A DNA stretch of 63,681 nucleotides, filler included, from Squatina squatina (taxonomy: Eukaryota): assembly GCA_031763465.1 (NCBI GenBank). It is 3 parts of 3 records of this genome, joined end to end, with 100 filler letters (N's around TTAATTAATTAA, not from the genome) between each part and the next. Parts side by side here need not be neighbours in the genome. Positions count along the whole stretch, not along the records: positions 1 to 27,407 come from JARFOE010000001.1; 2 more parts are not named here. The stretch is one strand, 5' to 3'. Under the pieces are notes generated by a model that did no database searches, was not told the DNA's origin, and was given only the letters and a program-made list of their open reading frames with translations. This document shows, piece after piece, positions 1-42,599 of this stretch. Numbering within the stretch: the stretch's first letter is position 1; every line of letters begins with the position of its first letter. The translations under genes were made by a program, and so were the position numbers.

Positions 1-1961
1 CGTCAGACAAAAATTCTTTACCACGATGGGGTCAGAGCGTGGACTTCTCAGCCACAATCGGTTGTTGAAGCAGAATCCAGCAATTCTTTTTAAAAAGGGA
101 TTGGCCCTGGTAATACAAATGAGGCACTATTGTCTGCAATAGCAAGTGCTTTGCATACCAGTTCTGGACCTATTACAGGACAACCGTCTGCAGCTGTGGA
201 GAAGAACCCAGCAGTTTGGCTCAACACTTACCAACCAATGTGTAAAGCATTTGTCGTCACAGATAAGGATATCAGGTGGGAGTCAAAGACTTCAGACTTT
301 TTTTTTTAAAACAGCAAGAAAGTTACATTTTCAACATATGCCATCTTAGTTTGACAGTTTCATCAGATAAGACTATAAATAAAATTTAGGCACTGGATGT
401 TTAAATTTAAAGGTGAACAAAGTTCCTAATAATACTGACTTATACTTCTAACCACTTTTCTCCCTCACCCCTGCTTCTTTGTGGAAAACAGTGACTTATC
501 TTAGGATATGGTTCAGCAGGCACCACTGGCCTTCTGGTATCTCGTACATCTGGCTATTTCCAGATATAAGCCTGCACATTGAATGTTGCTAGGTTGTTCA
601 GTAGTCAAGGATATCACAGCCAACCAATATTTTCTCTTCAGATTTTCAGTTGTTGTATAGACAGTCTATTATAAACTGTTAATTTATAAGTCTGTTATAA
701 GTATAGTTACTGTTTCTGTTTCATATGAGTAATTGGTATTAGAATGCAGCTGACAAAGTAGCACTTTAGCTCCTTGATCTTTTACTGGTTTTAACTATTA
801 TCTTGATTAAGGTAAGTAGATCACACGTAAAAGTTCTAATAGCACAGATGGTACCTACCTGTAAGCAGTAACCTGGAGTACTGAGCGCCTCCTAGTGTAC
901 TATTAGGGTAACATACAACCAGTCTTCTATTTAAGCACTTTATAACTACAGCAGAATTTACTTTATTTTTCCTTGATAATGATGTTTGCTTGGTGTTTTT
1001 TCAACAGTAGAGTATAATAAAGAGAAATTAAATATTCATGGAACAGCACTACATCAAGCTCCCTCAAGAGACTAATAAAGAACGTATACATCCATGCTAC
1101 TATGTTTCTCTGCAGTATCTAACTGCCATCTATGTAAATTTAAGATTTTTTTGGTTATTTTGTGATGACCTGTAGTGATATTTTATGTGTACTTTGAGGA
1201 TAGACTGCTCTCTGATTAGCTTTCCAGAATATGTCTGATAATTAGGAATTTGACTTTTGTGCAGTCCCATATCATTGCCAATATCAAGTAACAAATACAT
1301 GCGCATGGGGCGTAAATTTTGCTAGCGCCCACTTTCCTCCCCCGCTCCCCCCAGCAGTGTTCTTCCCCATGCAAATATGGTGAGGTTCAAGGAGCCCTGG
1401 ATATTGGGCCTTGGACCTAATCATCATGGTGCTGAGGAGGAGGTAAGTCCTCAAAGTTTGGACTGATGCTAATACATTCCTGTCATTGGAAGTGCCATAT
1501 ATGCATCCAGGTACATAGAACACCAGCACATCACAAGATGGTTCTGTTCCCTGCTTCTGAAGGTAAACCACTACCAGCAAAAAAAACTACATAGTGTCAT
1601 TGCCAACATATACCTTGCCTCAATGTAAGGACAGGAAGGTGACCCCAAATTTTGCATCACAAACACAGCCTTTAGTTGATTTCCTCATGATTTTTGAGCA
1701 ACTATTCATGCATAGTAGCTGTGGTGTGCCTTTTGTCTCTGAATCTGTTACATAGACATTACAACACAAACAGGCCATTTAGCCCAACCAGTCCTTGTTG
1801 CTGTATATCCTCCACATCAGCAGTAGTCCTAATCCCATGTGGCGGCCCTGTTCCCATACACNNNNNNNNNNNNNNNNNNNNNNNNNNNNNNNNNNNNNNN
1901 NNNNNNNNNNNNNNNNNNNNNNNNNNNNNNNNNNNNNNNNNNNNNNNNNNNNNNNNNNNNN

Positions 1962-3916: not shown

Positions 3917-4077
3917 TAGAAACATAGAAAATAGGTGCAGGAGTAGGCCATTCGGCCCTTCAAGCCTGCACCGCCACTCAACACTATCATGGCTGATCAG
4001 TACCCCGTACCTGCTTTCTCTCCATACCCCCTGATCTCTTCAGCCGTAAGGGCCACATCTTTGAATGTAGCCAATGA
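3917..4077 (-). mobile_element. CR1 LINE 3' end
   Basis: Reverse complement of the CR1 3' UTR (tcagccatgat...gaatggcctactcctgcacctattttctatgtttcta). Confidence 0.85.
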
Positions 4078-4177
4078 NNNNNNNNNNNNNNNNNNNNNNN
4101 NNNNNNNNNNNNNNNNNNNNNNNNNNNNNNNNNNNNNNNNNNNNNNNNNNNNNNNNNNNNNNNNNNNNNNNNNNNNN

Positions 4178-4282
4178 GAAAGCGGGAACATGGAGATGAG
4201 TTAGAGGATCAGCCATGATCACATTGAATGGCGGAGCAGGCCCGAAGGGCCGAATGGCCGACTCCTATTTTCTATGTTTCTA
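4178..4282 (+). mobile_element. CR1 LINE 3' end
   Basis: ggatcagccatgatcacattgaatggcggagcaggcccgaagggccgaatggccgactcctattttctatgtttcta. Confidence 0.85.
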
Positions 4283-4972
4283 CGATATATTATGCTTTTG
4301 TAATAGATCTTTAATGTTTGCATTATTCATATTTGTTATACATTTGTAATATTTCATGAAATTGATATTTGTGTTTCTAATAGATCTTTAATTTGCATTA
4401 TTAATTCAACATTTATTATGCATTTGTAACAGATCAATTATTTATATTCATTACACATTTGTAGTATTTCATTATATTGATATTATGCATTTCTAATAGA
4501 TTGTTAATATTTGCATTACTGATTTATATTGATATGCATTTGTTATACATTTTAATATTTGCAATAATATTTATTATACATTGGGATCTTTAATAATTGC
4601 ATTATTAATTGATATGATTTATTAATTTGTTATAGATCTTTAATATTTGCATTCATATTTATTATACATTTGTAGTATGTCATTATATTGATATTTGTGT
4701 TTCTAATAGATCTTTAATTTGCATTACTAATGACTATTATGCATTTGCAATAGATCTAATATTTTCACTATTAATTGATATTCATTTGTAAAGGATCAAT
4801 TATTTATATGCATTATACATTTGTAGTATTTCATTATATTGATATGCATTTGATATAGGTTTTAATATTTGCATTAATAATTGATATGCATTTGTTAGGT
4901 CTTTAATATTTGCATTTAATATGACACATTTGTTAGTGATCTTTAATTGCATTAATAATTGATATTTATTGT
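4283..4972. repeat. AT-rich degenerate tandem repeat (minisatellite-like)
   Basis: Recurrent motifs tagatctttaatatttgcatta, tatgcatttg and atacatttgtagtatttcattatattgatat throughout; runs into a gap. Confidence 0.85.
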
Positions 4973-5439
4973 NNNNNNNNNNNNNNNNNNNNNNNNNNNN
5001 NNNNNNNNNNNNNNNNNNNNNNNNNNNNNNNNNNNNNNNNNNNNNNNNNNNNNNNNNNNNNNNNNNNNNNNNCAAGCACTTGTGTACATATACCCCCAGG
5101 TCTCTCTATTCCTGCACTCCATTTAAAATTCTACAATTTAGTTGACTTTGCCGCTCCTCATTCTTCCTACTTTTCTGTTCTTATTTCTCTCGCCATGTTT
5201 TTCTTGCATTCCTTCCTATTCTGGTGTTTTGCTTCTTTATCTCTCTCTTCTACTTAATTTATTTTTTCACCTGAGTCCCTATTGCCTTTGACCCATAGAT
5301 GATTTAAATACAACCAGGTGAAGGTGCTAGAACCTGATGCAGCCATCTTGAGTCTGAGATCTTTAAGGCTTTCCAGTGAATTCAATTTCGAGAAATAATG
5401 GATTAGTACAACTCGTGTTAGAGAAAGATTGGATCGCAA

Positions 5440-6440
5440 AGGCCTGAATTCATCGTACCGTTACTGCGGTTTTGAAAGTAATCCAATTCAGTAACTTGAA
5501 TGAACTAGGATGGAAGAGACTATAAGCACAAGATAATCATCAGTAATTAGGGTTTTAAATGTAACTCAATAACAATTATTAGCTTCCGCGTTATCTTCCA
5601 ATTTACAAAATGAGATCTTTTGTCCCTGTCACACGGTTTCGCTTCTTTTCCTCCTCTGCAACAAACTGCAATAATAGCCCAAAATCTGTTGTAGCAGGGC
5701 AATGAATGGTGCCTGCTGTTAGTTATATTTGCCCATTTAATGTCAACGATATTTGGTGCTGCAAGTTGCTGGAAGTGCAAGGTGAAACTGACACGGTGCC
5801 CTCTACAGGCCACCTGAGATCTGAGCGAACAGGGCAAGCAACTGTGTATCTCCATAACCAATCAGAGTGAAGGATTGTGAAATTAACAGCGCAAGGTCTG
5901 AGAGGGAAGTGTTAGTTAGAATGGGGGAATTCAATGTCAAATCAGGTACTGAAAGAGAATTAGAAAGAGGAGAAGAAAGATTGGATTAAGAGAGTAAAGA
6001 GATAGAGAGGAAACGTAAAAGTCAAATTATTTTAATTTTTCAAATAAATCTCCAACAACAATTAAAACCTGATGGAATGAGACCCCACACCTGTAATAGT
6101 TCATTTTCAGTGCTAGAGAGGCTGACTGGCAGTAATTAACACTTATCACATTGTTAAAAGCGTACTTAGACTTGACTTAACTTTCTGTGGTGAGTTTAGT
6201 TCCTACATACGGTGCAAGTACGGAAGCTTCATGCCACTCAATGCATTTAAATGGGGATCCAGACAGTGAGATGCCATTTTTGTGAAGCTAAAGGAGGAGA
6301 GGCGCATCTCTGATAACAACTTTTCCATTTCCGTGTTTAATCACGCATCTTCCCTCACCTGAAGTTGCTGTGGCATTTACTCATGAATACCGGTGAGCAC
6401 TATTAGCCACACGCTTGTTTCAACACCAAATTCTGGCCTA
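5440..6440. mobile_element. Probable non-autonomous DNA transposon
   Basis: Short inverted termini aggcctgaatt ... aattctggcct of the type seen repeatedly in this window. Confidence 0.45.
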
Positions 6441-12334: not shown

Positions 12335-14689
12335 NNNNNNNNNNNNNNNNNNNNNNNNNNNNNNNNNNNNNNNNNNNNNNNNNNNNNNNNNNNNNNNNNN
12401 NNNNNNNNNNNNNNNNNNNNNNNNNNNNNNNNNNGTGCAAACTAAGTGCAACTTTCAACAACAAGTTCTAATCCTCTCGTAGCATTTTAAAGACAGAAAG
12501 GTTGATCCTGCAAGGCCTTGCTCCTGGCGTGGAGATTCTGTGTACGAGAGCACAGATTGATGAATCTATGGTGGAGATGAGTTCAGCCAATTTTTGGTGC
12601 TTCTGATTTTCTGTAAATTGGGACTTGCATCAGATTCTCTGATCCGTAATCCTGTGGAGTGCGAGAGACTCTGCCAGAAATGGAGCCTTGCAAAGTCACT
12701 CCTAAATTCCCTTTCAGAAGGAGGAAAAAATACAATCCGTAAATGTGAAACCCTATTAAAAATAGGATCAGACCACTGACCATGTTAAACCGCCAAACCA
12801 CACAAAAGAGCAAATGCAGCAGCACCAAAGTGCTTTTGCAGAGGCTCCAGCAATAGCAAGTAGTTCCCTGGAGCAGTGGATCATTTCCTGGAGCAACAGA
12901 GCAATTCAAGTCCAGGAGCGAACCTTCTTGTGGTTTTCTTGCTGTTCTTTGTTAAAATCCGTGCCCAGCCACATGACTAGCGCCATGTGGTATTCTGCAA
13001 CGAGAAGAGAAACCGTTCTCTCCAGGACAGAGACCACTTTCAGCCATTTTATTTACTACACTTTTTAAAGGTTGGGGAACATTATGCAGGAACAGTTTTT
13101 CCACAGGGCGAAGGAGCGCAGCTTTGCAGATCTGTAAATTTAAAAAAATCTGGCTGATCCTGCAGTCGTGGAATCAAGGACTTGAGCAAGTCCAAATAGA
13201 TTAAATGTCCAAAAATGTACACTTGATCAGATTGGCATTCAGGTTTTTATAGTTAGATTTTCGACAGCTGATAAGGCGCGATGGCACTTGTGTTATCAAT
13301 AGGCTTGGATTAATGTGACTGACATGTTATGGGAAAAAAGTGCACTTTAGCTCAATGCGCTGTGCTGCTCTGCTCTTTCACTTTACGCTCTTCACTGCCA
13401 CAGCTGTACTTGTCCTTGTGATCTACAGCTCAAAATATTCTTTGTGCATACCAGTCAAAATGTATATTGCATCTAATGTGCATTTTGCCTGCTGTATGTA
13501 CTAATTTGTCGTACTTGTATCAGATTGGATGAAATTTTGTATTCATAAAAATGCAACGAATCACAATTGAGCAGGTAGGGGGAGTATACTGTACAAACCA
13601 AAAGCAGGAGTGAAAACTACCAGTCATGAAGTTCAGAAAACTAAAACCAAAAATGGGCAGCCAGTAAGTGTTAGCGTTGAAAAAAACAAATTAAATGTAT
13701 CAAAATATATTTTGAAAATCCTTTCTACTGCCATCTTGGTCCTCCATTAAGTTGAACAGTTACAACTGTAAATAACATAACAAAAACATTTTAAGTTGTT
13801 TTAAATGTAGTAGAAAATGGTTACAGTTACATGCGCAATAGTAATTTCTCTGTTTGCAGTGCCTGTAATAATTTTTTCCACCATTGACCTATGCGAGTCT
13901 TAGGTTCATGTCGGTTTCCAGACGCGTAACTGCTCGTTAAAGAGATTGAAGCCAGAATGTAGCTGTGCACCGAGCTTCCTGATATTTCTCATGATTGACA
14001 ATAAGACTGGTGATTCAGAGGGTTACAGGACTTTCTTTTCGTAAGCTGCCCCATCCCCAGTTAAACCATTTTTTGAAATAATCAGAATTTTTTTAATGTT
14101 GATAAAACAACAGATCAGTATAAAGCNNNNNNNNNNCCCAACATTTTTGTGGCAACGCTGAAAGCAAAAACATATATGCTATATACTAGCTGATGTCCCC
14201 CAGCTACACTCAGCAAGTAGAGTCAGAAAGCTGAACAGACAGAGCTAAGGAGAAAACCAGCAAATGGGAAAGGGTGCAAAGCAGATCTCCATATTTTGTA
14301 GTATAATCTAAATGATTATAGCAGAAAAAATATATTTTATTTATCTTTATATAAATAATGGGATAGAACTTCCGTGGGGTGTATGCCCAATCTTCCACAG
14401 TAACTTTGACAGAAGATCGACAGAAACACAAGATAAATGGCGTAAACATTCACTTATGCTATTTCTGTGGGGTTTTCTGTCGAAGTTATGGCGGGGCATT
14501 GAGAGAATCGCCAGGGAATTACTGTACAGTGAGTTGGAGATGTGTGGAATTTTTTTTCCCTCTGAAATTTGAACTGTTGTGAGCATGCACCCAACATATG
14601 ATCCTCATGTGTGCCATCTCCATGAGAAATGACGTGAAAAAACGTCAAGTACATTGTATATAATAAATTAGACACAGACTGATCATTTT

Positions 14690-16877
14690 TTTTGTATCAA
14701 AACTTTATTTATCAAACAAAAATGCACCATTGAAATAACATTTCTATAAAAAAACGAACATCTGACTGTTCTACAGTGTATTACAAAAGCCTTTTTTGTG
14801 TACAAGTTTTATGTAGAAACAGNNNCATTCTATGTTTCTCCTTTTAACCATTTGCAAGTCAGATGTACACTTAATATTGCAGCTGCTAATCTAATTTGGT
14901 TAACATTGCCTATATTTCAACATGTGGCGGTCGGGTCACTCACAAAGAATCTTTCTCATGTGAATGAAGTTCCAGCACATTAAACCTTCACTGTAGTCAC
15001 AAAAGCGCCCATTCCAGACTCATCAGTACATTGACACTTCCTTCATAAATTATTGAAAAAGGACAGCCTAATAAATTAAATATTAATTATAAAAAGGTAC
15101 AGTTCCCACCCTCCCCCCAATCCCCTAGTTAGCAACTCACAAAGAAAGGAGTTGCTAAATATTGTACAATAAAAATGGTGGTGTTCTTTCCGCAATCACA
15201 TATATTCAGTTTGCCCTAATTTACAGTATATAGTAACAGGTTCATGCCAGTTTAAACAAGTATACATTTTTTCAATGTGTGTGGAAAATAATCATCACCA
15301 AGGCGGCTGCTATGAGACGTGGTTGTTTTGTGGCTGAAAACCAACCGACAGTTCTACAAGGAAACTGAATCGACAATGAAACAGCTCGAAACAGAAAAGA
15401 GTGAAGTAGGCAAAATGGAGAGGGTCTTCTGCAAACATTACTTTCACTTTAACTTGGAACTGCAATACGTTGTAGCTATTGAAGAGGATACCGTACAAGA
15501 AACAATGTTCTCAATTTTCTGTTCGTGAAGGGGAAAGAGTCACATGACCAGCTGTATTTGTTTTTAACACAAGCTAAAGAACAGCAGCAGCCTATTGTCT
15601 CACTATTATTCAATTTACTGTATGGGTATTGTTTGAATCAAGCTTAAATTGGGGGTGTTACGCAAAGATGGTTTGCCAAACAAAAACTCCACCAGTTCAA
15701 ATCAAGGATCATTCTGAACGGCAAAAGACTGCATCGTACGATAAATTGCATGCCAATTGCGTGTTTTTGGAACAGTCTCAACAAAGTACAATNNNNNNNN
15801 NNNNNNNNNNNNNNNNNNNNNNNNNNNNNNNNNNNNNNNNNNNNNNNNNNNNNNNNNNNNNNNNNNNNNNNNNNNNNNNNNNNNNNNNNNNNTTCCTCTC
15901 TTATCAAATGGACAAAAGAAAAACAATTGGTTTCTTCAACGGTCAATGAACACCCTGTGTTAAATACCCATTATGGTTTCATTTTAAACAGAGTCACTAA
16001 GTTATTCTGGGATGGGCACATACCAAAGCTGAGCAGAAGTTTTGATTCTCTATAGCCTGGAGTGTGCTTTTAATGATACTGCCTGAGGCTTGCACCCTGA
16101 TCACTGAATGGCTTCTTTAAATGTAAGCTGACTTACCACCGTGAATTATTTAGTATATTACCTCATGCTGATGCCCCACTGACACAGCCTACATTTTTTT
16201 TTAAATGATCAATATTTATTTGCCGGTATCAAATGGGGTCTGTTTTTTTCCCTATTGTGCGTGCCCAATGATCCAGTGTCTCGTGAGACTCTGCCTAAAA
16301 TCCACAGCTTCTTCCCCCCGCAAACTGAATTGGGTCACTGATGGAGTGTGTTCACAGACTCTATTCTACATGTATTTTATTGTCTGAGTTGTGGAAGAAG
16401 CATTTTCCCAAAATGCATGGGATCACTGATGGAGCAAGCTCACCGACTCCATTTTACTGCTATTGTAATTTTTCCCCCTTCTCCTGTTCCAAGTTGGTAA
16501 CTTCCCTGGGTGAGCTGTCTAGATCAGCTGCAAGTAAAATACTGAACCAGCTATTAATGACATTNNNNNNNNNNNNNNNNNNNNNNNNNNNNNNNNNNNN
16601 NNNNNNNNNNNNNNNNNNNNNNNNNNNNNNNNNNNNNNNNNNNNNNNNNNNNNNNNNNNNNNNNATGACATTCCAGTGCATTACTCTAAGACAGTGTGTA
16701 TATACAGATGAGCAATGGAACAGTTGTCAACATGAACAATGTCCTTTTGAGGAATTTCCTTGTTTGAACTGAAAGTTGCTGAAGAGAGGGCACACTGCGT
16801 GTCCCAACGTCAGTACATAAATACTGGCATGCTGCCTGGCTCCTGGTTGATTTGTCTCTAGCAGGTGGTGGTGACGG
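14690..16877 (-). other. DCC: Probable DCC 3' UTR (may extend further)
   Basis: Directly follows the TAA stop, has no recognisable interspersed repeats, is U-rich on the minus strand and ends shortly after an AATAAA. Confidence 0.6.
14704..14709 (-). promoter_or_regulatory. Candidate polyadenylation signal AATAAA for DCC
   Basis: Minus strand reads tttgat-aAATAAA-gttttgatac, with U-rich/UGUA sequence upstream and GU-containing sequence (tcagtctgtgtc) downstream. Confidence 0.5.
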
Positions 16878-17066
<189 letters not shown>

Positions 17067-17732
17067 CTAAACACAGTTTACTATACCTTATGACCGACTT
17101 ATCACCTTCAGAGTGTAACTCAGTTCCAAATTCAAATTATTGTGCAATGCAAGATGAAAATACAATGTCTACTATTAACCAATTTTGCCCTTTTTAAAAT
17201 TCATTTTCAGATACTTGTGATACTGTTTTATATAAAATGTCAAATATATGGAGGGCTGAACAATGGCAAGTTGACATGGTGACGTCAATAACAGGAAGAA
17301 GCCCACTGAATGGAGACCGTGACTTCGGACCTTCCTGAGAGCTAATCCAGAGCCAAACCCAGGTAAGCTCGCCACTGGGCAGGTTCAGTGCATGCAAAAT
17401 ACTCAGATTTGAAATGAGACGGTTTTAAAATGTGATTGAACAGAAATAACCGCTCGATTTGCAATCTTGTTTGTCAAACATGTTGCTGCCCTCAGTTACC
17501 ACATGCTCTGTTCCTACTTGCCTGTCGTTGCTGAATTTGTCTCTATAATAGTCTATGATTAAAACAACGGCAGACAAATTTCATCCTGCTAAAAGTATAC
17601 TGACTTCATCGGGATCAACAGCAATCTTACTGAAGGGAATATACTGCCAACATGTGATTCAACAATGCCATCAATAATCCTCCAGAAACAGCTCTTTTGT
17701 TTTTAAAATGTAACTAATTCTATTGACCTTAC

Positions 17733-17872
17733 ATTAGAATGGTCCTCTGTCCTGTGGCTCTCGTCTGTGACCTCTGGGGCTGTTGGGACAGAAACAGGAA
17801 GCAGCGGAGACCTCGCTTTTCCAGCCAGTCACAGTGAGGCCGTCTTACCATGACTCAGCGCAAGATTAGAAC
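17733..17872 (-). CDS. DCC: DCC penultimate coding exon (~28); contains an in-frame TGA at 17829-17831
   Basis: Acceptor ttttgatcacag|GT and donor AAT|GTAAGG; 140 nt. Translates [45 protein letters not shown], versus [26 protein letters not shown] in mammalian DCC. Confidence 0.93.
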
Positions 17873-19182
17873 CTGTGATCAAAACCCACAAAGTGTTAGA
17901 TGACGTACAACATCCCGTTTGCCAGTTTTAGTCAATACNNNNNNNNNNNNNNNNNNNNNNNNNNNNNNNNNNNNNNNNNNNNNNNNNNNNNNNNNNNNNN
18001 NNNNNNNNNNNNNNNNNNNNNNNNNNNNNNNNNNNNNNCTGCAGAATTTAGCCCTTAATAATGGACGGGCAATCCTGTGAAGCGCACTGACCTCTGGACC
18101 TGAACTCTTTATAAACGCTCTCGGGAGTGAAGGTCTGTACCAGCAGCTCAAATTCAATAAAGTATACCCTTACATTTCATTGATATTGCAAAGGATCTGA
18201 AAAGGTATGATTAAATCAGTCAACTGAATCAGAAATGTTAGGTGTGTGTTTTTATATCACACATGTAAAAGCGATTTCAACATATTTTCTTATCCTCTCT
18301 GCTTTTGACATTTCAGATGCTGAGCTGCAGGGAGGGGGGTGGGGATTCTCAAGGATACACAACTTTCTGACAAGGAAGGTGAACACGGATCAATTGGCTG
18401 CTTGTCTGCTTGAGCCTCAGTTGAGACTATTTGGACCATCTTGCAGTTTGTGAGGCGGAAAAAATCAAACTCAATTCCGCAACACTGTGAAGTGCTTTTT
18501 AGTCCTGTCATGCTTCCTGACATATTGATCGATGAAAGATTGAAAAGGTTGCTACTGAGTACAGGATTTACAGAAATGCGCTATGAAATTGGAAGAACAG
18601 CGCATGTTGATAAAAAGGGTATGCACAGTGAAACCTCCTATATTAGGGGTTGCTTTCCCAAATGTACCAAGCTGCCAGCCTAAGATAAATGACTGCTTGA
18701 TCTAAGTTCACTTGAAGTGCACCAAATCATTACCTGTGTTGATTAGATACACTTAATTTCAGCAGATTTTATCCCCTTTCTGTTATCTTGTTATCTATTT
18801 GTTGCTTGCCTCGGAAATAGACTAATTAAATAGGCTAAGATAATGTGGAGCATTCTCTCCAAGCAGATTGTTTAGTTATTTCAAGAGCACAACTTTAATA
18901 CTTTCATTAATTTATAGTCTAGCCAGTCTGCTAGTGAGTTTGGGTTGAGAATTTTACTGGCTCAACAAAGTGGAAAGTTTGTTGGAGTAAGAAGTGTATA
19001 ATAACATTAGTTCAATTATGAAGTGTAGGGTTGTATTCTGTAAAGTCTGTTAGCAGACTCTGTATTAGGTGTATTAAGTGCCNNNNNNNNNNNNNNNNNN
19101 NNNNNNNNNNNNNNNNNNNNNNNNNNNNNNNNNNNNNNNNNNNNNNNNNNNNNNNNNNNNNNNNNNNNNNNNNNNNNNNNNN

Positions 19183-19917: not shown

Positions 19918-20067
19918 CTGATCCAAATCCTCGATCGACTGTCAGTGTGGGGAACGGCATGGTACGCAATGGAAACTGCGGGTGAGGATATCCACATGTT
20001 GGAGATGGCAGGATGCCGGGATATTGGGCACTCTCTAGTGTTGGAACAGGAATCGCACTTACAACAG
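19918..20067 (-). CDS. DCC: DCC exon (~26): cytoplasmic region with caspase-site motif LTVD
   Basis: Acceptor ttctgttcacag|CT and donor CAG|GTAAGA; 150 nt, phase 1-1. Translates [49 protein letters not shown]. Confidence 0.96.
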
Positions 20068-21447
20068 CTGTGAACAGAAAATAAAAAATCTTACATCATT
20101 GCTCAGTCACATTGTCCACAAACTAAAAAAGTTTGCTGAAGGCAAAGCACTCAAAATATTGCAAAAAAAGTCACATTTAAAAAATAGCTCAAACATTTAA
20201 TGTGGTTTTGGTTTTATAATTATGCTACGTTTATTCAATTAGGTTACATTTTAAATTGAATCATATTTCATGTTAATTCTGATTAGCAAAAGGACACTTT
20301 CAGATTTTGCTGGAGGACACTCAAGGGAGATTGTCTCCTGATAAATGAATTCTCCAAGACACTTTGAAGATTGGAAGACAAGGGCAACAACTTTCCTGAT
20401 TAGGGGATGGTGTCATCACTTGTACCGATCACATCTGCCTTGACATATTTGAAATTTAAAGCTTTTAATCTTTTTATTCACCGTGTATGGGAGCAAGGTT
20501 GACATTCCAGTGGACATCAGTTAAAATTAGCAAGTTAGAGGTAAGAAGGAAAGTTCGACCCGAAGAGTAATAGAGTTGTGGAATAGATTACTGGGGAAAG
20601 CCAATGAAATAATTGGGGTAGGGCACCTGCTTTGGGTGCAATTGGCAATCTGGGTGCAAATTGCACACAAAATGCTGCTAATTTTCCAAACTGATCTCAT
20701 GGCTCAAGTTTCCGCCGAAACTTATTTGTATAATCACAATCGGGGCGATAACTCTCCGGAGCCAGGACANNNNNNNNNNNNNNNNNNNNNNNNNNNNNNN
20801 NNNNNNNNNNNNNNNNNNNNNNNNNNNNNNNNNNNNNNNNNNNNNNNNNNNNNNNNNNNNNNNNNNNNNAAAGAGAGTTCATTCCAAACATTTTGATTCT
20901 CCATAAAGCTGAAAAAGTGTATTCCAAATCCCAAAGGCTCCAACTGCTAAGATTGGAAATTGAACAGCTGTGAAACGGCAGCTTTTATGCCACTTTTTGC
21001 AGCTGTCAACTATTCACAGCAATGGAGTCATTGAGATTCCAACATTCCAACTTACCTGACGTGAGCTCCAAACACCGGGAACCTAGTAAAAAAGCTGTAA
21101 AAATGGTAAATACCTGGTAAAATGCTTTTTAAATACCTTTAAATAAGCTGCTGGTGATTTCAATTGGCTCCCCACCGCCTGGTGTCAGGTCTGTGAAGCG
21201 CAGGGAGACAGGCACTTGGCAAACTGGCGTGGAGGCGGGCTGAAATCACACTTTCGCCCCGCTGTCAATCACTGTCATTTTGACAGCTGACCCGCCTCCA
21301 AACTCGCACTCGCAGCACCAGTAAAATTCTGGCCTGATATTGTACATTTGTAAAATTAGCCCGATAGTAATCTGTGCACAGATTGTAGACTTTGTAGGGA
21401 TTTGGTTCTTGTATTATACATGAACCTTTAAATATACTTGGGCTTAC

Positions 21448-21677
21448 CTGAATGTGAGCCACTTTTGCTGGTTAATTGGTTCTCTGAGTGGCTGTGGCTG
21501 ACAGGGGTTATATCCTGGCAGCTTTGTTGCATGGGTGAATCTCGTACAGTTGGATCTGTGCCTGAGGGCTTTTCAATATTTTTCATCTCCATTTCTTCAT
21601 GATGTATCCAGAGATCTGGTGGCCTCAAGTCTTTTTGGCTGCCCTTTCGTTTGCCACCACTGTGTGCTGCACGTTTT
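21448..21677 (-). CDS. DCC: DCC exon (~24): cytoplasmic P1 motif
   Basis: Acceptor ccccatcacag|A and donor CAG|GTAAGC; 230 nt, phase-compatible with the previous exon. Translates [76 protein letters not shown]. Confidence 0.97.
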
Positions 21678-22594: not shown

Positions 22595-24715
22595 TTTGTT
22601 CATGGGATGTGGGCACCATTAGCAAGGCCATCTTTTATTGCACATCCTGAAGGTGAGCTGCCTTCTTGAACCACTTCAGTCTGTGTGGCAAAGGTACTCC
22701 AACAGTGCTGACCTTGTTGTAATAATTTGGTACCAAATGAATGGCTTGCTGGGCCATTTCAGAGGGCAGTTAAGAGTCAACCATATTGCCGTGGGTCTGG
22801 AGTCAAATATAGGCCAGACCAAGCAAGGGTAGCAGATTTCCTTCCCTAAAGGACATTATTAGTGCTTATACAGTTTATTGTTAGAATTTGTGCCACAAAA
22901 AANNNNNNNNNNNNNNNNNNNNNNNNNNNNNNNNNNNNNNNNNNNNNNNNNNNNNNNNNNNNNNNNNNNNNNNNNNNNNNNNNNNNNNNNNNNNNNNNNN
23001 NNNNNNNNNNNNNNNNNNNNNNNNNNNNNNNNNNNNNNNNNNNNNNNNNNNNNNNNNNNNNNNNNNNNNNNNNNNNNNNNNNNNNNNNNNNNNNNNNNNN
23101 NNNNNNNNNNNNNNNNNNNNNNNNNNNNNNNNNNNNNNNNNNNNNNNNNNNNNNNNNNNNNNNNNNNNNNNNNNNNNNNNNNNNNNNNNNNNNNNNNNNN
23201 NNNNNNNNNNNNNNNNNNNNNNNNNNNNNNNNNNNNNNNNNNNNNNNNNNNNNNNNNNNNNNNNNNNNNNNNNNNNNNNNNNNNNNNNNNNNNNNNNNNN
23301 NNNNNNNNNNNNNNNNNNNNNNNNNNNNNNNNNNNNNNNNNNNNNNNNNNNNNNNNNNNNNNNNNNNNNNNNNNNNNNNNNNNNNNNNNNNNNNNNNNNN
23401 NNNNNNNNNNNNNNNNNNNNNNNNNNNNNNNNNNNNNNNNNNNNNNNNNNNNNNNNNNNNNNNNNNNNNNNNNNNNNNNNNNNNNNNNNNNNNNNNNNNN
23501 NNNNNNNNNNNNNNNNNNNNNNNNNNNNNNNNNNNNNNNNNNNNNNNNNNNNNNNNNNNNNNNNNNNNNNNNNNNNNNNNNNNNNNNNNNNNNNNNNNNN
23601 NNNNNNNNNNNNNNNNNNNNNNNNNNNNNNNNNNNNNNNNNNNNNNNNNNNNNNNNNNNNNNNNNNNNNNNNNNNNNNNNNNNNNNNNNNNNNNNNNNNN
23701 NNNNNNNNNNNNNNNNNNNNNNCCGTATGTGGCTGGTCTAGTTATGTTTGTGCTCAATAATGATCTGAGAATGTTGATGGTGGGGGATTCAGTGATGGCA
23801 ATGTCAAGGGATGGTTAGACTCTCGCTTGATGGAGATGGTCATTACCTGGCACTTGTGTGGCGCGAATGTTACTTGTCACTTATCAGCCCAAGCCTGAAT
23901 GTTGCCTGGGTCTTGCTGCATGCGGGCATGCAGTTTATGCGAATAGAACTGAACATCAGCAAACATTTCCACATTTGACCTTACAATGGGGGGAATATCA
24001 TTGATGAAACAACTGAAGATGGTTGGGCCTAGGACACTGCCTTGAGTAACTCCTGCAGCGATATCCTGGGGCTGAGATGATGGGCCTCAACAGTCACAAC
24101 TATCTTCCTTTGTGCTAGTTATGACTCCAGCCAGTGGAGAGTTTTCCCCTTGATTCCCATTGATTTTAATTTTACTAGGGCTCCTTGATGCCACACTCGA
24201 TCAAATGCTGCCTTGATGTCAAGGGCAGCCTCACCTCTAGAATTCAGCACTTTTCTCCATGTTTGGACCAAGGTTGTAATGAGGTCTGGAGCTGAGTGGT
24301 CCTGGCGGAACCCAAACTGAGCATCAGTGAGCAAGTGCCGCTTGATAGCACTATCGACATCACCTTCCATCACTTTGCTGATGATTGAGAGAAGATTGAT
24401 GGGGTGGTAATTGGATGGATTGGATTTGTCCTGCTTTTTGTGGACAAGACACACCTGGACAATTTTCTACTTTGTTGAGTAGATGCCAGGAACATGTACT
24501 GGAACAGCTTGGCTAGAGGTCTTCAGCAGCATAGCTGACAGCCGGGATGTTGTTGAGGCCCATAGCCTTTGTTGTATCCAGTGTGTTCAGCCGTTTCTTG
24601 ATATCACGTGGAGTGAAGCTGAAGACTGGCTTCTGTGATGGTGGGGACCACAGGAGGAGGTCAGGATGGATCATCCACTTGACATTTCTGGCTGAAGATG
24701 GTTGAAGATGTTGGT
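22595..24715 (-). mobile_element. CR1-clade LINE with decayed reverse-transcriptase domain (spans an 820-N gap)
   Basis: 24119-24454 translates HKKQDKSNPSNYHPINLLSIISKVMEG...DAQFGFRQDHSAPDLIT...AALDIKAAFDRVWHQGALVKLKSMGIKGKTLHWLES (non-LTR RT motifs). The family 3' tail is at 22595-22862 in the same orientation. Confidence 0.88.
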
Positions 24716-27407: not shown

Positions 27408-27451
27408 NNNNNNNNNNNNNNNNNNNNNNNNNNNNNNNNNNNNNNNNNNNN

Positions 27452-27463
27452 TTAATTAATTAA
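27452..27463. other. Artificial TTAATTAATTAA linker inside an N gap
   Basis: 12-mer giving stops in all six frames, centred as 44N+12+44N; identical construct at 41443-41454. Confidence 0.92.
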
Positions 27464-27507
27464 NNNNNNNNNNNNNNNNNNNNNNNNNNNNNNNNNNNNN
27501 NNNNNNN

Positions 27508-31139: not shown

Positions 31140-31790
31140 GTACAAAAGGCTAATGGAATTCTGGCCTTCATATCAAGAGAACTAGAATAGAAGTGGTTTG
31201 AAATTATGCTACAGTTATACAAAACCCTGGTTAGACCACACCTGGAGCACTGTGAACAGTTCTGGGCACCACACCTTCGGAATGATATCCTGTCTTGGAG
31301 GGAGTACAGCGTAGGTTTACCAGAATGATACCTGGATTTAAAGGGTTAAGTTATGAGGAGAAATTACACAAATTCAGGTTGCATTCCCTGGAACTTAGAT
31401 GGTTGAGGGGTGATCTGATCCAAATCTTCAATATATTAAGTGGAACAGAGAGGGTAAATACAGGGAAACTATTTCTGTTCGTTGGGGATTTTAGGACAAG
31501 GGGACATCATATAAAAATTGGAGCTAAACCTTTCAGGAGTGAAATTAGGAAATACTTCTACACACAAAGGGTGATTAAGTTTGGAACTCTCTTCCCCAAA
31601 TGATAGTTGATGCTAGATCAATTGTCAATTTTAAATCAGAGATTGACATCTTTTTACTAACCAAAGGTATTAAGGGATATGGTCCAAAGGTGGGTATATG
31701 GAGCTAGGTGGCAGATCAGCCATGACCTCATTGAATGGCGGAACAGGCTTGAGGGGCCGAATGGCCTCCTACTGTTCATTTGTTCCGATG
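31140..31790 (+). mobile_element. CR1 LINE, ORF2 C-terminus and 3' UTR
   Basis: [24 protein letters not shown]...LELRWLRGDLIQIFNIL...TRGHHIKI...RKYFYTQRVI, then the CR1 3' UTR. Confidence 0.92.
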
Positions 31791-41030: not shown

Positions 41031-41442
41031 AATAGTACTTACATTCGTTTAAACCGACCTCACAAGCTAACTGGAGAAATGTTCCTGCTTCAAAAAAAAA
41101 GTGCCCCTTCGTCTACTGTCGCTCGACCTGTCTAAATTACAGCAGAATTTCCACTGCTGCATTTTCAAATACATGTCAGGAATTTCTGTGCTTGGGGATT
41201 ACATTCTTAGTCCAACAGTCTTCAATGGAAACTGTTTAACTTGTACTGAAGATGATATAAATATTTCTAAGGAAATTCTATTTCTTTTGTAGCATCCCAT
41301 AAAAAGCACTCCCAAGGAAGTCTATAAGGTTCCAATAAGATTATTTTGAAAAGGTTTCACATTTAGTTTAATCTTGCTCAGTGAATCACTAGTTTGCCNN
41401 NNNNNNNNNNNNNNNNNNNNNNNNNNNNNNNNNNNNNNNNNN

Positions 41443-41454
41443 TTAATTAATTAA
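41443..41454. other. Artificial TTAATTAATTAA linker inside an N gap
   Basis: Same construct as 27452-27463. Confidence 0.92.
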
Positions 41455-42599
41455 NNNNNNNNNNNNNNNNNNNNNNNNNNNNNNNNNNNNNNNNNNNNTA
41501 ATAAATTGAGGACCATTAACTAAAATGACAGGCAACCAATAAGCCTCAGTGTAAGGTCAGGCAGGGCTTTGAGATTACGCTGTTAATGGAGGAAATTTAA
41601 ATTTGCTCATATTTCCTATCTTCAGATCAATGCCAGAGTGGCTAAGATGGATTGCTGTGTGCATGCTGCATGAAAAGTCTGGATGTTCTCATATTTCATA
41701 ACTGCCAATCACTGACTGTCACAAACTGACTGCCCCCAATGCAATATCCAACATCTGTGCACAGCCCATATTTAATTTTTGTGTAAGAGAAGATCTGAGC
41801 TACAAATAAAACATGACCCTAGACTGTCAATCAGAAATGAAAGTTTGCAACGTTGAGTAAAGAATTAGGATTCGCACTGAGTGATGACTTTGTACTAAAT
41901 CTCTGCCCATGTTTCTTGGGTGACAGAACATTCACCATCAAAATAATTATCACTGCAATACACTTGCTACAATGGATTGACAAAATTTGTTTTTCTGCTT
42001 CTGGTTCCCTCTCTAGCGAGCCTTTCTCTGCTTTGTGTCATTCTGGAAAGGCTGAACGAAGAGTTGAGACATAACCCTAAAAAGGGGAACAAAACAAAAA
42101 TCAGCAACTCTGCGAAATTAGAATTGGGATACATTTGCCAGTCAAAGCTTGCTAGCATTTTGTTGACGACAATATAATTACGGAATGCCCAAGAGCTCCA
42201 ACTCTCCCTTCTTCCCTGTGATGAAACGCCTGGCCTCTACACAACACCTCTCCCTGACCATTTGGAAAACAGCGGCTCAACCCTGCATCTTACAGGACAC
42301 AGCCATTGGAGCGCTGCTCCAGTGAACAGCTTAGTCATCGGCAAATGTTTTTTGTCTGCACGGTTACAGCCAAGCACCAAAACAGGACCTTACACAAAAG
42401 TAAACTTTAACAAAGGCACAAATAAAAATCTACAGGNNNNNNNNNNNNNNNNNNNNNNNNNNNNNNNNNNNNNNNNNNNNNNNNNNNNNNNNNNNNNNNN
42501 NNNNNNNNNNNNNNNNNNNNNNNNNNNNNNNNNNNNACTCATGTGCAAGAAAAAAAAAATCTGCATCTACGACTAAGAGTAGGACCTCGCAACAAATAA

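Follow-up and report, generated by a model that had tools for sequence, protein, structure and literature searches.

The penultimate coding exon of the DCC gene of Squatina squatina contains an in-frame TGA in the draft assembly GCA_031763465.1, which raises the question of whether this shark carries a shortened or recoded receptor or whether the codon arose in the making of the assembly. The TGA letters are truly present in the record, and the stop they spell is likely not real biology. The locus was analysed within a stretch of 63,681 nt, filler included, which is referred to below as the window.

Position of the stop in the DCC gene

Five DCC exons (23, 24, 26, 28 and 29) were recovered in order on the minus strand by tblastn with chondrichthyan DCC proteins (Table 1), under an exon numbering which we take to follow that of human DCC, the penultimate exon being 28. 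The gene is the DCC orthologue, as it has a Neogenin_C tail with P3, an MBD2 neighbour and an identity of 250/253 residues to the nearest shark DCC proteins, those of Heptranchias and Pristiophorus, with three carpet sharks following at 249. These identities place the animal among the sharks and hint weakly at a squalomorph. The tail-to-tail placement of DCC and MBD2 is presumably the same as in human. No next MBD2 exon was found by tblastn, and the 60 codons of the exon that was found included one odd residue, a Lys at a variable column that is the common vertebrate state (111/120).

Table 1. Features of the DCC locus in the window, with positions counted along the whole stretch
Feature	Position	Strand	Evidence
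MBD2-like exon (90-97% identity with proteins of Chondrichthyes), facing DCC tail to tail	98-275	+	protein comparison
100-N gap; flanks overlap by 8 nt and relatives have no missing sequence here	16565..16664	.	sequence, relatives' contigs
Assembled piece of 1274 nt holding the stop; relatives' contigs continue past both ends	16665..17938	.	contig comparison
Start of 3' UTR	16665..16877	-	comparison with relatives
Terminal coding exon, intact P3, normal TAA	16878..16967	-	match to PDB DCC, proteins
Penultimate DCC coding exon, 140 nt, AG/GT intact, phase 1 to 0	17733..17872	-	sequence, Pfam, tblastn
Glu to Asp, the other private change; altered base 17763, 68 nt away from 17831	17763..17765	-	relatives' DNA, proteins
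In-frame AG inside the exon with pyrimidine-rich run (16/20); first exonic base 17779	17779..17800	-	sequence
In-frame TGA at Gly codon; variant base 17831	17829..17831	-	sequence, relatives' DNA, protein alignment
100-N gap, 107 nt above the stop	17939..18038	.	sequence
DCC exon 26, intact, no private residue	19918..20067	-	tblastn, 20-species comparison
DCC exon 24, intact, no private residue	21448..21677	-	tblastn, 20-species comparison
DCC exon 23 (transmembrane), intact, no private residue	25592..25754	-	tblastn, 20-species comparison

The minus strand around the stop reads GCC TCA CTG TGA CTG GCT GGA AAA GCG AGG, and the residues encoded after the stop matched positions 237-265 of the Pfam family Neogenin_C (PF06583; E 1e-05). 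Relative to the Chiloscyllium DCC protein the stop stands at residue 1385/1446, and 62 residues would be lost, P3 among them. The distance from the end of the TGA to the exon donor is 96 nt, and under the 50-55 nt rule a stop lying 96 nt above the last junction predicts nonsense-mediated decay (NMD). Downstream, the terminal exon, read from 16967, was identical at 28/28 residues to the DCC C-terminus in PDB 3au4_B.

A sequence-only reading of this DNA had described an in-frame TGA in place of a conserved Gly, a Gly at the same column in mammals, a distance of 96 nt to the last junction and a conserved terminal exon with an intact P3, and these points were borne out by the sequence and its coordinates, the mammalian DCC proteins in the alignment and the PDB match, respectively. 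That reading had also held the rest of the exon to be conserved with both splice sites, which stood for the splice sites and not for the exon as a whole, as the Glu of a second codon has been replaced by Asp (Table 1).

Neither exons 25 and 27 nor any exon preceding exon 23 turned up in the called sequence, a 10-residue sliding search included. The missing inner exons amount to two of the seven between 23 and 29, and each of the two intervals holds at least one 100-N gap. Regions searched included 19918-21448 for the inner exons and 25754-63681 (38 kb) for those preceding the transmembrane exon. These absences are most simply put down to gaps or long introns, and less simply to a true deletion. 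The gap immediately above the stop-bearing piece lies in the interval of the missing exon 27 and is preceded by AG and followed by GT on the minus strand; an exon placed there would leave an intron of 66 nt, and with 42 gaps in the window such flanks may be chance. An FN3-like tblastn match at 19616-19455 (32%, E 0.003-0.04) was out of exon order and was set aside as chance.

Other parts of the window include an AT-rich array of degenerate short repeats at about 4300-4970, with a GC content of 0.30 in 4001-6000, and broken open frames at 1832-2188, 24122-24466 and 31286-31600, which we take to resemble the tails of LINE reverse transcriptases. Open reading frames at 18293-18580 and 2396-2686 had no Pfam match. 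The spacers at 27408-27507 and 41399-41498 both have the form N44-TTAATTAATTAA-N44, a palindrome that closes every reading frame on either strand, and are likely man-made joins, that is, a non-genomic scaffolding linker.

Comparison with relatives and constraint on the gene

The DNA of relatives was compared over 17715-17895, where the stop site was covered by three organisms (B, C and E) from three studies, each by one contig at a depth of 14-18. All three carried C on the plus strand at 17831, which gives GGA, and they also differed at 17763, restoring Glu. A further relative, organism D, was compared within the listed differences (40 of 106, up to 17402), that is, short of 17831. At the protein level the stop column was Gly, never Cys or Trp, in 120/120 of the DCC matches listed (of 282 found) and in 20/20 chondrichthyan species, the latter set containing one protein per species from 36 entries after isoforms, fragments and two unrelated members had been dropped. 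The column of the Asp change was Glu in the same 20/20 species and in 119/120 of the matches listed. A broken DCC tail was seen in 0/20 chondrichthyan species, and a pattern scan of metagenome contigs gave 0 matches. As judged from these relatives, the stop is confined to the record, or to a lineage that arose after organisms B, C and E had branched off. Introns of the relatives differ by 6-10%, which means that any change more recent than this separation would look private too.

The five exons contain two private residues in 253 codons, namely the stop and the Asp, and the other 207 DCC codons contain none. For a neutral yardstick, intron 28 differed from organisms B, C and D together at 26/435 sites (6.0%). 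Had a quarter, half or all of the path been neutral, 8.6, 17 or 34 amino-acid-changing changes would be expected, and the probability of observing two or fewer would be 0.009, 6e-06 or 7e-13, respectively. The data accommodate neutrality over at most 14-55% of the branch. With two private residues against 8.6-34 expected, an old pseudogene is excluded, while a young one would fit the data. A unitary pseudogene was accordingly rejected within the scope of exons 23, 24, 26, 28 and 29, in which there was a single stop. Over 16672-16873, the first approximately 200 nt of the 3' UTR, no difference common to relatives B, C and D was found.

Origin of the in-frame TGA

The TGA probably stems from a single miscalled base in the consensus, at a point where a fragmented draft had little read coverage. 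The window includes 42 runs of N, 33 of them exactly 100 N long, and comprises 43 pieces with an N50 of 1692 nt. Since the relatives' contigs are continuous at both ends of the piece holding the stop, and the flanks of the lower gap overlap, reads probably ran thin there. From the upper end of this piece the stop is 107 nt away and the Asp change 175 nt. Few reads would have covered the site near the assembly break, one miscalled base would have been carried into the consensus, and the Glu to Asp change could be of the same origin as the stop. The true DCC gene would then likely keep the Gly, and its receptor would be normal and include P3. That the two private changes lie so close together is suggestive and falls short of significance, with a chance of 0.18 that they share the exon.

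A change of a single base creates a stop in 3.5% of cases in these exons. Error rates of 1e-4 to 1e-3, which are assumed values, would give 0.015-0.15 false stops per DCC-sized gene, and an assumed rate of 1e-5 would give 0.0015. The stop, its absence in relatives, the constraint on the gene and the gappy assembly are observed, and from these we infer the error itself. The points against an error include the clean remaining coding sequence, the lack of a bias toward damage-type changes, the non-significant clustering and the private look that any young change would have. Changes of the damage type (C>A/G>T) relative to the relatives numbered 10 vs 6, 7 vs 5 and 7 vs 5 (p 0.45-0.77), a comparison in which true divergence swamps the signal. 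The G>T damage artefact put forward in the sequence-only reading finds no support in these counts. The ranking given there, of error ahead of a private allele and of a private allele ahead of readthrough, holds.

The site resembles the false nonsense calls in draft genomes treated in PMC5865188, being a lone stop in a conserved gene, unshared with relatives and set in an incomplete assembly. Sequencing errors and incomplete assemblies are noted there to mimic gene loss, and at least 10 raw reads are demanded. The pipeline of that study would discard this site as lying in the last 20% of the protein. If the TGA is an error, it has meaning only as a caution, in that single stops near breaks in gappy drafts are no proof of gene loss or recoding.

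A real nonsense allele of the one animal, most likely heterozygous and with the mutant side chosen by the assembler, is unlikely. Nonsense alleles are rare in a constrained gene, and it is for this reason that the allele was ranked second. It fits every comparative result, including the private base, the intact gene and the clean flanking coding sequence, although it would be rarer than the false stops expected at draft quality under the assumed rates, and the Asp change would need a second, separate cause unless both lie on one haplotype. Were the allele real, its mRNA is predicted to undergo NMD, or the receptor would lack the last 62 residues including P3, and a heterozygous allele would be of note for this single animal alone. 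In people, carriers of one loss-of-function DCC allele are viable and penetrance is reduced (PMC10996338), and in kanga/+ mice the volumes of the optic nerve and tract did not differ from those of wild-type animals (PMC7062470).

It is quite improbable that a young stop has become fixed in the species, either as the first step of a loss of DCC or P3 or tolerated through the in-frame AG inside the exon. Use of this acceptor would drop 31 codons including the stop and keep P3, and its run of pyrimidines compares with 12/20 at the normal acceptor. The use of cryptic sites after mutation is documented in zebrafish (PMC5716581). However, a deletion of the kind that the internal acceptor would produce was present in 0/114 measurable DCC proteins (148 examined, most of them found with a query containing this exon, which biases the count), and no published report of a DCC exon-28 splice variant is evident from literature listings. 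The bypass matters only if the stop proves real. Skipping the exon altogether would be no rescue, because its length of 140 nt shifts the frame and P3 would be lost regardless.

The data allow for the neutral spell given above, and DCC has been lost twice in birds, where early commissures were described as without obvious change (PMC5327424 and PMC5327406), and these points lend a fixed stop some room. Those bird cases are losses of the locus and not point stops, and the intact tails of the 20 chondrichthyan species and the lack of a second disabling change in the five exons argue against fixation. One study was unable to produce homozygous kanga mice (PMC7062470). For the broader proposition of a shark with a just-fixed stop that cuts off P3, or one surviving via the acceptor at 17779 (31 residues dropped) together with a leaky UGA-C, the chance is small. 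Only a fixed stop would have wider meaning, as it would offer a lineage other than birds in which to study the crossing of commissural axons without DCC signalling, and one young enough for compensating changes to be traced.

Still less probable is an origin of the piece from a recent, decaying duplicate of the DCC 3' end with the true gene intact elsewhere. The two amino-acid-changing and zero silent private changes in the exon are possible for a neutral copy, but the piece occupies the site at which the DCC 3' end should stand, converging on MBD2 and collinear with exons 23, 24 and 26, and each relative has a single contig at the site.

There is only a very remote chance of programmed stop-codon readthrough, by which receptors with and without P3 would be made from one mRNA. 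The sequence-only reading had raised it on the strength of the UGA-C context, and this much stands, as no stop context leaks more than UGA-C, for which a basal readthrough of 3-4% is reported in mammalian cells (PMC4615788). For the remainder of the idea, one of the refuting observations named in that reading, the absence of the TGA from related species, was made, with GGA in 3/3 of those covering the site and Gly in 20/20 species. A stop conserved across species, by which programmed readthrough is recognised, is therefore absent. The frame past the stop is open and conserved, which is equally expected for an ordinary exon. Vertebrate genes with proven readthrough keep UGA-CUA throughout vertebrates (PMC4132726), and those named there, OPRL1, OPRK1, AQP4 and MAPK10, share with this site a UGA followed by CU and coding-like sequence after the stop. 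They differ from it in that the stop here is unconserved, has the context UGA-CUG-G in which the C is the first base of an old Leu codon, and interrupts an ancestral domain, with no short extension past a main open reading frame. Two defining features of programmed readthrough, a conserved stop and CUA(G) after UGA, are both absent from the DNA. Readthrough of UGA inserts Trp, Cys or Arg (PMC4615788) and not the invariant Gly, and at a few percent of readthrough, with NMD predicted as well, full-length receptor would be scarce. When the exonic part past the stop was folded, it was no more stable than shuffles (z 0.04, 0.13 and 0.88). Selenocysteine insertion or A-to-I editing of the UGA has an almost negligible likelihood and is favoured only by the identity of the codon, as no SECIS or relevant Rfam element was found in 13500-18100, where the UTR has gaps (four weak unrelated matches, E 2.2-5), the column never holds Cys or Trp among the matches listed, and no local duplex for editing exceeded shuffles.

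DCC losses elsewhere and a possible second donor site

Known DCC mutants give a measure of what a real stop would mean. If the stop were real, its product would lack P3 like that of the mouse Dcc kanga allele, but kanga affects the P3 exon itself, whereas the stop here is one exon upstream with NMD predicted and the allele here is putative. Carriers of one allele are viable both for human DCC loss of function and for kanga (PMC10996338 and PMC7062470). Galliform and passeriform birds show that DCC can be dispensed with in a vertebrate lineage (PMC5327424, PMC5327406), and their losses are of the locus and linked to rearrangement, in contrast to the present case in which five exons, the splice sites, the 3' UTR and the synteny with MBD2 are kept. 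Titles and abstract openings in the literature give no evident report of DCC loss in sharks.

Also of interest at the penultimate exon was a second GT on the minus strand (17732-17726), 5 nt past the normal donor, in a region unchanged in organisms B, C and E. Use of this site would bring the last exon into the +1 frame, to be read as YMSRMT and then a stop, and an annotated DCC isoform of Mobula hypostoma ends in VRFMSRMT. Sharks and rays may therefore have a natural DCC isoform that lacks P3 and has its stop in the last exon.
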